Source: a virus (lineage: Duplodnaviria > Heunggongvirae > Uroviricota > Caudoviricetes). Taken from it: 64,000 nucleotides of DNA. A program made the translations under genes and the position numbers. Of the stretch, positions 54,115 through 63,974 are shown piece by piece (position 1 is the stretch's first letter; every line of letters starts with the position of its first letter). The stretch lies in IMG/VR virus record IMGVR_UViG_3300043418_000226, one strand, 5' to 3'. Under the pieces are notes generated by a model, which had not been told where the DNA came from, made no database searches, and was given only the letters and a program-made list of their open reading frames with translations.

Positions 54115-54224
54115 TGCCCTGATCCAGTCATCACCTTCAGGGTAAGTTTACTGGGACGTATGACAGGTGATTGAAATCCCAGTAAAGTTCTACCCCTTCA
54201 ACAGTGTGACAGTAATCCGAGCAT
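54115..54224. repeat. Palindromic intergenic element E1
   Basis: TTACTGG(54148)-N24-CCAGTAA; 30 nt block identical to 60962-60991. Confidence 0.8.
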
Positions 54225-54270
54225 AAAAAAACCCCGACTTTCGCCGAGGTTCATTATTAACATCTGTATA

Positions 54271-55032
54271 CTATAGTTGTATGACAAACTTATTGGTGGT
54301 CTCTAATTTGTTTCGAACACGTTTGAACTTCAAACCTATAATACTTTGTTTGTCATCCTTATATCTCATGTCGTAATCATCTCCAAAGATAACGGGATAG
54401 TTCATATAAGTTTCGGGTACTTTGTTAAATACCATTGCAACCCTCACATTATTTTTCAACATCGTAATACAATCATCCATATTGTGACCGCTGTAAGAAA
54501 ATGTCAAATCATAATTAGGGTACTTCTTAACAATCTCTAATCGATTCGGTACTTTTGTATAGTCATAGAATTGAACATCGGGAAACATCTCTAAAATGTT
54601 TTTCTTGGTTCCGTTGTCATCAAGATAAAATTGTAAAGGGGATAAGTCAGACGTATTATTCAGACGTACACTAAAACGAGCTCCCTCACGTTCAGCTTTG
54701 ATTCGTGCGTCCTTAATCTCATCTACCATCCATCTTACAAAAAATTCTCTATCTTCAAAGAATAGTTTCGTTTTGGTGATTCGTGAATTGTTAATCGTGT
54801 TTTTCTTGGTATCCATCTTGTTACGACCCGATTCGTTTAAACACATAAGTGTACACTCTTGTGTTCTCATAGGACAAACCTCATACCCTGAAGATTTTGC
54901 AGGTGCAAGATAAATTGTGTACGTGTGTTCGTTGTACTTATACGCCTTCTCATGTTTGGTCGAGTTGTTAACCATACCCAAATAACTTAATCCGGTACTT
55001 TTTTTCGCTTGAGCTTTTGACTTGTAAATCAT
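54271..55032 (-). CDS. Gp88-like phage protein
   Basis: VCP...C...CLN.SG, VRLNNTSDL, FYDYTK, YDLTFS and GD..DMR motifs. Confidence 0.7.
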   Translation of the reverse strand: MIYKSKAQAKKSTGLSYLGMVNNSTKHEKAYKYNEHTYTIYLAPAKSSGYEVCPMRTQECTLMCLNESGRNKMDTKKNTINNSRITKTKLFFEDREFFVRWMVDEIKDARIKAEREGARFSVRLNNTSDLSPLQFYLDDNGTKKNILEMFPDVQFYDYTKVPNRLEIVKKYPNYDLTFSYSGHNMDDCITMLKNNVRVAMVFNKVPETYMNYPVIFGDDYDMRYKDDKQSIIGLKFKRVRNKLETTNKFVIQL

Positions 55033-55119
55033 AATGTTGTTTTTGCGTTAATGATGGTACAAAGATATAACAATATTTCTATTATACAAAATTATTTAAA
55101 GTTTTTTTTAATTATTTTC

Positions 55120-55334
55120 TTGAGTCAAGATTCCCATCTCAGGTCCACGGGATTACAATACATTACTGGTATTTCACTGAAGGGTGATCATGCCGATCCT
55201 GAGATGTTAAATATTACTGGTATATCCCAGTAAAGTTACCTGATGGGGATCAGTGCAGATCAGGTTCTGAGATGGGAATAATCCCAGTAAATAAACAGAA
55301 GACTTTTGCCGGCGTCTTCCTGAGTTAAGCGCAC
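55120..55334. repeat. Palindromic intergenic element E2
   Basis: TTACTGG x2, CCAGTAA x2; 13 bp inverted repeat ATTCCCATCTCAG/CTGAGATGGGAAT; 28 nt block identical to 59949-59976. Confidence 0.8.
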
Positions 55335-55388
55335 AAAAAAGGGTCATCTTTCGACAACCCCCTTTTCACATTAACACTATTCACTTAA

Positions 55389-55616
55389 TTATTCATCTAC
55401 TCGTCTGTGTCCTTCCATATCTCCAAAGATTCCAATTGATAACCAAATCTGTTCCATTGTTGCTTCATTGGTTAAAGATTGCTCCAATACTTCTTGAGCT
55501 TCCTCATCTGTTACAATGAACTTTGACTTAACGTCCTCAACACTCCATAAGTTATCTGTGAAAAATCCTCTCTTTGATAACTCAGCTTTTAATTCTTCGT
55601 TTGTGTAGTTTTCCAT
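55389..55616 (-). CDS. Hypothetical protein
   Basis: WSVEDV...TDEEAQEVL. Confidence 0.6.
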   Translation of the reverse strand: MENYTNEELKAELSKRGFFTDNLWSVEDVKSKFIVTDEEAQEVLEQSLTNEATMEQIWLSIGIFGDMEGHRRVDE

Positions 55617-55918
55617 TAGTTTGATATTCTTTTTTCGGTTTGTAATTGTTCAGCTTCCCAAATGTCCGCTAACATTAATATCTCCTGTAATACGTCCTCA
55701 CTCAAATCTTCGTAACTGATATAATCTTCATCTGTTTCCGTATCATTAACATATAACACGGCAGTTACTTTATGTTCTCCAAATTGTTCTGCCAATAAGT
55801 GTGTATTACCTAACGATTGAATAACGGGACTACTGTTAGCTTCAACATCTGCGGTTGTAAATTCTCCAAACTTTACCACAATCTTTTGAATGTGATTAAT
55901 AATTTCTGTCTTTTCCAT
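55616..55918 (-). CDS. Hypothetical acidic protein
   Basis: 100 aa ORF. Confidence 0.6.
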   Translation of the reverse strand: MEKTEIINHIQKIVVKFGEFTTADVEANSSPVIQSLGNTHLLAEQFGEHKVTAVLYVNDTETDEDYISYEDLSEDVLQEILMLADIWEAEQLQTEKRISN

Positions 55919-55921
55919 AAC

Positions 55922-56182
55922 TTATTTTGATATTGTATTATGCCAAATTACATTTCCCTCATCATCAAAGATTTCTTCCGTTGGTTCTCCACCATTATCT
56001 TCGGGTGTCAAAGGTTCTTGTGCATCCATTGTTTCTTCCCAACCGATACTTGATGTATTACCTTGATTATGGAATTCGATTGCTTTCTTCTTTGCTTCCT
56101 CATAGTTGTCAGCTTCGATTTCATATTCGGTTTCCATCCAGGTTGTTACTTTTTGTTGTAACGAAAAATTAAATGTTCCCAT
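55922..56182 (-). CDS. Hypothetical acidic protein
   Basis: EIEADNYEEA motif. Confidence 0.6.
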   Translation of the reverse strand: MGTFNFSLQQKVTTWMETEYEIEADNYEEAKKKAIEFHNQGNTSSIGWEETMDAQEPLTPEDNGGEPTEEIFDDEGNVIWHNTISK

Positions 56183-56185
56183 AAT

Positions 56186-62520: not shown

Positions 62521-62635
62521 CTTATTTTGTGTTCGGATTTTCTCCCGTCCCCGACTTTGGTTATTTTGATAGTACAAAGATATAACACTTATTCCATTCT
62601 ACCAAATTTATTTTACTTTTTTTTTATTTTTTTTT

Positions 62636-62817
62636 CTTGTCCACTTCCATCCGGATTACAGTCGTCATGCACATATTACTGGGACCGAAGGTGATGATCA
62701 TCCCGTGCCTGAGATGTACAATATTACTGGTGTAAGACAGACATGGGTCAAACCCAGTAATATGTCCATAGCGGACCTGCGCTGAGATGGGATTCTGTTT
62801 GCGCCACAACAGCGCAC
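62636..62817. repeat. Palindromic intergenic element E8
   Basis: TTACTGG 62676; TTACTGG(62724)-N23-CCAGTAA(62760). Confidence 0.8.
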
Positions 62818-62869
62818 AAAAAAAGGGTAATCTTTCGACTACCCCAATTTTCACATTAAACACTTATCT

Positions 62870-63214
62870 TTAAACGAGTTCTCTCACTTGGTGTAAGGTT
62901 AAGAACTTCACTTTGTCTTTTACTTCCTCAATAGTAAGATTAGTATCTATACTATCCCCATTAATTTGATTATATCCTAAAATCAAACCATTTCCGGCAA
63001 TTGGTTGTCCACCTTCTCCAAATTGAAAGAACTTGGATTCATTAGTAAGATTTAACAAACCCTCCTCATCAACATAGATGTCATTGCTATCGTTAATGTT
63101 TACCACTTCAAACGTGTCACATTCTACAACGTCATAGATTGGTTGGATTCCTTTTTCAATTAAAACAAATTCGATTGTTTCATTTTTTACGTCAATTAAA
63201 ATTCCTTTTTTCAT
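62870..63214 (-). CDS. DUF3846-like protein
   Basis: IYVDEEGLL...PIAGNGLILG. Confidence 0.65.
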   Translation of the reverse strand: MKKGILIDVKNETIEFVLIEKGIQPIYDVVECDTFEVVNINDSNDIYVDEEGLLNLTNESKFFQFGEGGQPIAGNGLILGYNQINGDSIDTNLTIEEVKDKVKFLTLHQVRELV

Positions 63215-63305
63215 AATGAATAGTATTAGTTGTTATTTGATGATACAAAGATATAACTAATATTCTGTTATACCAAATTTATTTACATTTATTTTTAATT
63301 ATTTT

Positions 63306-63438
63306 CTTGAGTCCGCTTCTGAAGAATCTCCACGCTGCGACGGGGAACATATTACTGGTATTCCACGCATTAACATTAAACCCAGTAACGTTCTTACCAT
63401 GCACCGTCGGCGGAAGATTCTCCACTTCAGTTTACTCC
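63306..63438. repeat. Palindromic intergenic element E9
   Basis: Nested inverted repeats CTGAAG/CTTCAG, GAATCT/AGATTC, GACGG/CCGTC around TTACTGG(63352)-N23-CCAGTAA(63388). Confidence 0.8.
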
Positions 63439-63494
63439 AAAAAAAAACCACCCGTAAAACAAGTGGTCTTTAAAAATTAAAATGAAAAACAAAT

Positions 63495-63647
63495 CTAATT
63501 CCCTACAATGGGAATAACAACAAAAAAGGAAACCCAAAAAACAAATACAACAAGTGCAAAACCCAAATACATATCCCAAAATTCTTTTCGGTCGTTCTTC
63601 CACATATCGACTGAATAACTATATAAATCTTTTATCATCTCTCTCAT
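63495..63647 (-). CDS. 50 aa membrane peptide (not in the ORF track)
   Basis: MREMIKDLYSYSVDMWKNDRKEFWDMYLGFALVVFVFWVSFFVVIPIVGN. Confidence 0.5.
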   Translation of the reverse strand: MREMIKDLYSYSVDMWKNDRKEFWDMYLGFALVVFVFWVSFFVVIPIVGN

Positions 63648-63909
63648 CTTAAACTTTTTTAAGTGTTAAAAATAAATTAGTAACGTAATGTTTCACAATT
63701 GATACTATACACATAAAAGACGATATAGTAAAAAGTGATAAACACACTAACCAAAATCCAATGATTAGTTGTTGCAATAAATTCATTTGTCCGATTTCAA
63801 AAATAAATTGTTCCATAATCTTAAAGTGTTAATGTTAATTTGATAGTACAAAGATATAACAATAATTTGATTATACAAATTTATTTACACTTTTTTTTAA
63901 TTTATTTTT

Positions 63910-63974
63910 TGAATCTAATTTCCATCTCAGATGTTCACGGGATTACGATACATTACTGGTATAATTGCCACCAA
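63910..63974. repeat. Short intergenic element E10 (half site)
   Basis: CCATCTCAG..CACGGGATTACGATACATTACTGGTAT shared with E2 and E5. Confidence 0.7.

Follow-up and report, generated by a model that had tools for sequence, protein, structure and literature searches.

Lineage-specific words between promoter-gene-terminator cassettes in the early block of an uncultured Bacteroidota phage

We describe an array of promoter-gene-terminator cassettes, separated by GC-richer elements that carry a short repeated word, at the end of a 64,000-nt stretch of phage DNA (IMG/VR record IMGVR_UViG_3300043418_000226; hereafter the window). The window is the final 64 kb of a 318,764-bp metagenomic contig (JGI 3300048625) from an uncultured Bacteroidota phage of ~319 kb, and since the window ends where the contig ends, the array is cut off there. 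Our preferred reading of the sequence comparisons, to which we assign a probability of roughly one half, is that the words are predicted sites of a lineage-specific factor on early promoters and double as joints for recombination. We regard the region as the early block of this phage, hyperplastic and dense in promoters; its cassettes each begin with an A+T tract and a host sigma-A-type promoter (TTTG ... TAnnTTTG), continue with at least one gene, and close with an intrinsic terminator.

Cassettes, elements, and converging words in the window

Minus-strand genes run from ~47.8 kb to the end of the window, and between 54.1 and 64.0 kb, read on the minus strand, the order terminator, GC-richer element, A+T tract, promoter, gene(s) is repeated ten times, as the original prediction had stated (Table 1). 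The elements are 58 to 213 nt long and have 45% GC in a window of 33% GC, with ten site-bearing elements at 54115-63965. Promoters have the Bacteroidota form (TTG, 17-23 nt, TAnnTTTG) and stand beside A/T tracts, and their −7 box, TTATATCTTTG, is found in 12 exact minus-strand copies between 53.5 and 63.9 kb. A scan returned 11 terminator-like sites, compared to 4.7 expected, the minus-strand ones lying directly upstream of elements. One 32-nt terminator module (window 60044-60075) is 100% identical to a module in another lineage (L092 5820-5851) whose genes are at ~65-74%, and terminators seem, from such sequence matches, to travel as modules (L- and G-numbers are labels for related uncultured phage loci and records, L134-L148 being from G004 and L038-L046 from G002).

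The arrangement TTACTGG-N(0-30)-CCAGTAA occurs 10 times in the window, compared to 0.00 expected from 100 shuffles. The gap is exactly 23 nt in six of these palindromes, 24 nt in one, and 6 nt in two, in agreement with the original counts, and 12 nt in a further one at 47732. With 15 TTACTGG and 19 CCAGTAA half sites (~3.6 and 3.8 expected), forward and reverse copies are near-balanced in this lineage, and all except one lie within 45.6-64 kb, in the minus-strand block, which bears out the earlier remark that half sites are rare farther to the left. The word of this lineage is 8 to 12 nt long (TTACTGGG) and is present in one to five copies per inter-cassette spacer. The copies at 48378-51032 lie in short spacers right before the A+T-rich leader of the following gene, and the copy at 52672 falls within conserved coding sequence.

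Alignment of 195 non-redundant sites, taken from the window and from three relatives, in the same orientation gives the consensus aaaA-n-a-TTACTGGG-g-T-a-t, and these conserved flanks render the word asymmetric (A-n-a-TTACTGG-G/T-r-T). In nested pairs with loops of ≥12 nt (n = 41), pairing over the six positions that flank the word scores 2.39 of 6 on its outer side and 2.88 of 6 on its inner side, versus 2.32 and 2.83 for the null, and pairing beyond the word does not differ between true and shuffled partners (P = 0.35 and 0.39). Each palindrome thus consists of an asymmetric word and a second copy converging on it, with no selected stem, and the attC-like folding that had been suggested is not supported, as partners lack complementarity beyond the word. 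Forward copies precede reverse copies within every element.

The 23-nt centres had been described as all different. No near copy of any of them (≤3 mismatches) is found elsewhere in the window or in the relatives compared, and CRISPR-like spacers, another candidate, were rejected for these sequences on that ground; TGTC(A/T)TAC is nevertheless common to 4 of the 7, indicating that not all are unrelated. The elements also share exact or near-exact blocks in mosaic fashion, as had been noted: 54116 matches 60962 (the left 30 nt of E1 recur at 60962-60991), 55248 matches 59949 (43 nt, 93%), and 57912 matches 61054 (57 nt, 88%). Nested inverted flanks, claimed for three of the elements, are clear in E9 and E1 but not general, with E4 folding at chance level (Table 1).

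Table 1. Coordinates of cassette features in the window (ranges or start positions; sites given as forward / reverse word copies)
Feature	Position	Strand	Details
Palindrome, 12-nt gap	47732..47757	none	Zone between plus- and minus-strand gene blocks; absent from the list of the original prediction
74-aa protein	48054..48278	-	Small, basic, AP2/integrase-arm-like fold (weak resemblance); candidate binder
Single words co-oriented with transcription	48378..51032	-	CCAGTAA on plus strand at 48378, 48425, 49210, 51026
Host-type promoter, example	54052..54082	-	TTG-N-TAnnTTTG
−7 boxes after an element	54052, 55060, 57711, 58895, 59794, 60900, 61531, 62575, 63246, 63849 (starts)	-	
−7 boxes without element	53503, 56429, 57260	-	
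E1	54115..54222	-	TTACTGG 54148, CCAGTAA 54179 (24-nt gap); minus-strand RNA fold −40.5 kcal/mol, z −3.3
E2	55118..55330	-	Four sites, 55163, 55214 / 55227, 55284, as two converging pairs; inner pair a 20-mer with 6-nt gap
E3	57771..57935	-	57815, 57880 / 57893; 20-mer (6-nt gap) identical to that of E2
E4	58957..59078	-	58994 / 59024, 23-nt gap; fold z 0.0
E5	59857..60043	-	59899 / 59929, 23-nt gap; also 59985
E6	60961..61076	-	60994 / 61024, 23-nt gap
E7	61598..61715	-	61635 / 61665, 23-nt gap
E8	62637..62817	-	62676, 62724 / 62754, 23-nt gap
E9	63308..63430	-	63352 / 63382, 23-nt gap, within long outer inverted repeat; z −5.0 minus strand, −2.3 plus strand
E10	63908..63965	-	Lone site 63953; adjoins terminator at contig end
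Intrinsic terminator, example	54229..54252	-	Hairpin then T run, found by scan
Further scanned terminators	61084-61105, 61728-61749, 62824-62845, 63981-64000	-	Hairpin and T run
Terminators read by eye	~55335-55362, 57937-57963, 59079-59106, 60048-60075	-	
ParB-like cassette gene	61774..62577	-	

Words of related lineages and their distance to promoters

Sister phages whose DUF932 protein is 67-69% identical to that of the window carry the same word, with 25-35 plus 15-28 copies per 15-20 kb, and the word is retained across phages with proteins only 68% identical and with flanks that cannot be aligned. The gaps between words in these sister phages are 6, 7, 8, 10, 15-19, 35-38, 46-47, and 56-60 nt, and a 23-nt gap is found only in the window and two near-identical contigs. 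Judged by this comparison, the 23-nt gap is a trait of a sublineage and not a requirement, and the view of a fixed 23-nt core as the functional unit is not supported; beyond the window, it is the word that is enriched in the early blocks of relatives, and the spacing is private.

Genome-wide word counts were taken from the records of relatives, the phage's own genome being represented by the window, and they place the words in a single block. A 176-kb relative has background frequencies of the word over 164 kb and a dense cluster in the last 12 kb. In G004 (288 kb, 92% complete by the estimate of its collection), the 30 copies of that phage's own word keep to one 30-kb block together with the host-type promoters, with 9, 15, and 9 promoters per 10 kb and 33 in the surrounding 40-kb stretch.

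More distant relatives lack TTACTGG and have a different over-represented word at the same place. Words of other lineages include (T)GTTTGGCA, accompanied by GATTGGCA and GGTTGGC, and TGTACTGGAA, with 61 forward and 13 reverse copies in 20.8 kb, as well as TAATCGGCA, TTATCCGCA, TCAATCCGCA, TTATCCACA, and GTATGACA; GTCTGGCA and AAAACTGG were located via homologues of the 74-aa protein of Table 1. Among the relatives there are at least nine word classes, many of them separated by single-base steps around a TGG or GCA core. Because the word differs between relatives while its place is the same, the pattern points to a co-evolving DNA-binding factor. Such a sequence-specific factor, probably encoded by the phage, would bind the word, co-evolve with each phage lineage, and influence early transcription, whether by activating it, shutting it off, or insulating cassettes from their neighbours. 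The original prediction had a dimeric protein binding the palindrome, which does not agree with a word that is asymmetric and also occurs in single, co-oriented copies; in lineages B to E, words are mostly single and in one orientation (61:13, 26:3, 19:2, and 20:2 forward to reverse copies).

The distance between word and promoter is fixed for many forward copies in four of these lineages. In L111, seven of the 19 forward copies end 42 nt, and four end 32-33 nt, before the −7 box; L105, L082, and L088 show the same distances as L111, and in the TGTACTGGAA lineage the distance is 35 nt. The distances of 32 and 42 nt are one helical turn apart, and this one-turn spacing just upstream of the −33 element looks, in the sequences compared, like an upstream promoter element or activator site. 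In the lineage of the window, the A+T tract occupies the phased position and the words lie farther upstream, mostly paired in converging orientation at 60-200 nt from the −7 box, an arrangement that gives rise to the palindromes. The link to promoters is clearest in the other lineages because the word-promoter distance is loose in that of the window.

A search of IMG/VR for the exact word pair gave 13 single matches, which is the number expected by chance, with no array among them, and we found nothing in the literature on such words in Bacteroidota phages.

Folding was considered as a different explanation, in which the elements would function as RNA or single-stranded DNA folds, much like REP/BIME or RNase III sites, with the word as a recognised stem and the hairpins stopping RNA polymerase, protecting 3' ends, or directing processing. 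This is the most probable of the alternatives, and we still regard it as improbable. The elements fold with a mean z of about −2 relative to shuffles on both strands, four single-hairpin elements of the window strongly favour the sense strand (e.g., −47.2 versus −31.5 kcal/mol), and the elements always follow a gene end; moreover, mini-elements inside operons have no terminator or promoter, so that those copies are transcribed. However, the sister lineage, for which 24 elements were run, shows no strand bias (sense z −2.4, antisense z −2.2), some elements fold at chance level, complementarity stops at the word with no covariation, and words are single in most other lineages. Most elements, furthermore, lie between an intrinsic terminator and the following start site, and an Rfam search of the region matched no RNA family. 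With REP/BIME sequences, the elements share extragenic palindromic units of alternating orientation, combined in mosaics after gene ends; they differ in that no RAYT (Y1 transposase) is found in four related records, in their location in a phage early block, and in that the word is tied to promoters in sister lineages. A site for a factor on early promoters remains our favoured explanation of the word.

Rearrangements at words and exchange of cassettes

The original prediction had proposed to compare cassette order among related phages, and such a comparison shows several rearrangements bounded by words. Close relatives that are 86-98% identical were compared for joints. A 43-nt segment between sites has opposite orientations in L016/L017 and L018/L019, with 95% identity in reverse and ~93% in the surroundings. 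The loop of one hairpin is 7 nt in L019 versus 85 nt in L017, the 85-nt insert carrying hairpins of its own. A 749-nt promoter-gene-terminator unit is present in L014 and not in L017, with a duplicated word-based hairpin on both flanks. A comparison of 18 sequences (17 loci and the block of the window) places 49 of the 120 homology-block ends that fall in intergenic DNA (41%) ≤10 nt from a word, compared to 18% of intergenic positions (P = 3e-9), with the caveat that these events are in part dependent on each other. As a separate observation, loops between converging words in lineages with different words contain an A+T-rich hairpin, GTCAAGTTT...AAACTTGAC (L017 9176-9260 and L037 12160-12250).

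Between lineages, DNA homology to the cassettes of the window sets in 0-15 nt past the upstream element and runs to the end of the gene or slightly beyond the terminator, reaching ≤~10 nt into the downstream element. These limits at the element edges imply that lineages share the A+T tract, promoter, gene, and terminator, and that the word spacer belongs to the genome. Cassettes are mosaic in their relationships, with a 210-aa gene being 73% identical to one distant lineage and 45% identical to the sister lineage, and ~10 of the 31 early open reading frames (ORFs) of the window have no relative in any lineage compared. Dozens of copies of words, promoters, and terminators fall within 20-30 kb, and these would therefore also serve as joints for general or short-homology phage recombination, by which cassettes may be gained, lost, inverted, and swapped at element edges. 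The earlier alternative of binding sites or recombination sites is supported in part: the words behave as predicted binding words and as rearrangement joints, and the dimer and the fixed core are not supported.

In a further alternative, converging words would serve as core sites for site-specific recombination by a dedicated, integron- or shufflon-like system, in which an unrecognised recombinase excises, inserts, and inverts early-gene cassettes. The inverted 7-8 nt cores around a variable centre, the presence of hairpins with 4-6 nt loops beside 85-nt ones, the inversion, deletion, and cassette insertion bounded by cores, the enrichment of homology-block ends at cores, and the many contigs of this phage family that break within the block all agree with such a system. 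We nevertheless consider it somewhat less probable still than folding. Searches for Resolvase, Phage_integrase, Y1_Tnp, and rve domains in four related records, of which one is 92% complete, were negative for serine, tyrosine, Y1-HUH, and rve-type enzymes, with positive controls (14 of 14 control genomes for Phage_integrase). None is visible in the window, as had been noted before, and no integrase is present among its early ORFs. Furthermore, the word of other lineages is mostly single, co-oriented, and promoter-phased, which fits a promoter element rather than a crossover site, every cassette has its own promoter, and elements are intact in strain variants at 94-98% identity. Among these, E2 is kept at 96-98% in L048; E3 shows an 11-nt indel in its GATC/GCGC-rich flank. 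Integron attC sites likewise have inverted 7-nt cores and a variable centre of widely differing size at each gene-cassette boundary; in contrast to them, the array described here has no integrase, its cassettes have their own promoters and terminators, its cores also occur singly, and neither extended imperfect pairing nor an extrahelical-base pattern is seen.

Selfish miniature mobile repeats of MITE or REP type, spread in the intergenic DNA of the block with no service to the phage, are a very unlikely explanation of the elements: exact blocks are mosaically shared among elements, one loop holds an 85-nt insert with its own hairpins, and the composition of the elements is unlike that of the genome, with 15 of the 35 GATC and 10 of the ~15 GCGC sites of the window concentrated in the elements (1.4 kb) despite the avoidance of both in the genome, but no Y1 or rve transposase was found in the four related records, the word is conserved between phages at 68% protein identity while its flanks cannot be aligned, copies are limited to one block and one cassette position, and words are promoter-phased in other lineages. 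Avoidance of GATC is strong in general, with 0 copies in the 288 kb of G004 and observed-to-expected ratios of 0.10 in window 1-47 kb and 0.22 in G002, and GCGC and CTAG are also low in this phage family.

Candidate binders, known systems, and biological meaning

The genes of the early block are small and mostly without known function, with family matches to DUF932, DUF3846, GP88, a DUF1281_C protein, a ParB-like protein, and a DNA methyltransferase. The methyltransferase (49560-50513, minus strand) matches a PHROG family, is C5-type according to a precomputed PF00145 annotation, and has homologues that were seen in two distant lineages only. At the DNA level, no match to cultured phages was found among 50,697 phage records, and the best protein matches among cultured relatives are the helicase of the window, 40% identical to that of ~178-kb Bacteroides phages, and DUF932 (28%). 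Outside the block, Rfam tRNA matches are present at window 35764-35885 and 36332-36441 (110-122 nt, 38-42 bits) and are not called by ARAGORN. The zone between the gene blocks (window 47200-47800; L014 20200-20860) contains GGTCC..GGACC-type hairpins beside GTATAATA / GTATTAC words, and this repeat zone could, at window 47200-47800, be an origin or a non-coding RNA region.

Two proteins had been put forward as possible binders of the word. The first, the 74-aa protein, is the product of the last block gene in every lineage, and its gene is preceded by one or two copies of the local word (two in the window). A conserved promoter-like GTTATATTTTAT box, distinct from the early −7 box, is also found in front of this gene. 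The protein has no Pfam match; its model (pLDDT 69, with 78-88 over residues 31-70) has three strands at residues 28-56 and a helix at 59-73. Its best structural neighbours include the SIP2 AP2 domain (Z 4.9), the ERF1 GCC-box domain (Z 4.3, rmsd 1.9 over 46), the HPI integrase arm domain (Z 4.1), and the Tn916 Int N-domain (Z 3.6), all below the trust level of the tool, and the model looks weakly AP2/arm-type by fold. Domains of the AP2/arm type bind asymmetric sites as monomers, which would fit the word. The suggested AP2 likeness is retained as a weak resemblance of fold (Z 4-5), while the sequence of the protein does not track the word. A His/Phe/Gln residue that was tried as a specificity code of this protein was refuted by three further lineages.

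The second, the ParB-like protein, is an unlikely binder on present sequences, as its gene is missing from three partial same-word records and is present in a different-word lineage. Other readers of the word were also tried and rejected. Relatives have a gene for a ~270-aa sigma-70-family protein that contains a region 4 domain (L150 871-1686 in G002; L149 874-1686 in G004); a phage sigma factor as reader was rejected because the region 4.2 helix is identical in two lineages with different words. The word as a promoter of a phage RNA polymerase or as a late promoter is not compatible with its background frequency outside the block. A search for a MotA-like activator gave no match, but the control search was equally silent and the result is uninformative.

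Several observations weigh against words that are read by a factor on early promoters and serve as joints. No DNA-binding Pfam or PHROG match is found among the ~30 early ORFs, and the binder was not found. The sequence of the 74-aa protein does not co-vary with the word, its homologues in L153 (GTTTGGC) and L155 (AAAACTGG) being one residue apart in strands 2-3. In the lineage of the window, the words stand upstream of the −7 box at loose distances of 63-161 nt (reverse copies) and 93-283 nt (forward copies). The forward-before-reverse order within elements is explained neither by independent monomer sites nor by any of the rival explanations. As for the joints, to the partial independence of the events mentioned above we add that homology blocks could end at words since the adjoining loops evolve fast, and that several indels between close relatives are not at words, e.g., a 72-aa gene that is absent from strain variants including L048 through a clean start-to-start deletion inside an operon.

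With respect to known systems, the comparison that the original prediction drew with the promoter-early stem-loop (PeSL) cassettes of T4-type phages (Arbiol et al. 2010, PMC2839356; Comeau et al. 2014, PMC4122927) fits. Both have a repeated unit of strong host-type early promoter, A+T-rich upstream tract, and terminator stem-loop, located in hyperplastic regions beside small genes without known function, and in both the units bound indels or replacements in close relatives. The differences are the phage group and the host phylum, with Bacteroidota −33/−7 promoters here, and an extra GC-richer spacer that carries the lineage word, often as converging pairs, outside promoter and terminator. PeSL mini-circles have been demonstrated by experiment (PMC2839356; PMC4122927), and the exchange described here is read from sequence comparison.

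The word itself resembles the stoperators of Cluster A mycobacteriophages (Mavrich and Hatfull 2019, PMC6550527; PMC9283540). These are asymmetric words of ~13 bp with tens of intergenic copies, mostly in one orientation to transcription (here in lineages B to E), and the word varies between related phages, in the case of stoperators along with its monomeric binding protein. Stoperators are, however, distributed genome-wide in temperate phages and have a known repressor, whereas the words described here lie in one block of apparently lytic jumbo phages, are often promoter-phased or in converging pairs, and have a predicted binder. By analogy, the best account of the array is one that resembles a PeSL-like cassette system with an added stoperator-like word.

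Large phages keep the majority of their unknown and anti-defence genes in early blocks (here DUF932, DUF3846, GP88, and ParB-like genes). To our knowledge, the regulation and reshuffling of early blocks are known in detail only for T4-type phages. Here, PeSL-type cassette logic is seen in Bacteroidota phages together with a word that changes between lineages, stays with the genome and not with the traded cassette, and stands at a fixed helical phase upstream of the promoter in several lineages. This offers handles on a new early-transcription factor, on the prediction of cassette boundaries in metagenomic phage genomes, and on whether related lytic phages tell their own promoters from foreign ones. 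A more speculative extension, which we hold to be doubtful, is that each lineage labels its early promoters with an address word of its own, recognised by an equally private factor that enters with the DNA by injection or is the first to be made, resulting in self-specific early transcription. If so, co-infecting relatives would be unable to use each other's factor or would be shut off by it, which would be a lytic-phage counterpart of immunity specificity, and the words would set the joints at which lineages trade anti-defence cassettes while the address remains with the recipient genome.

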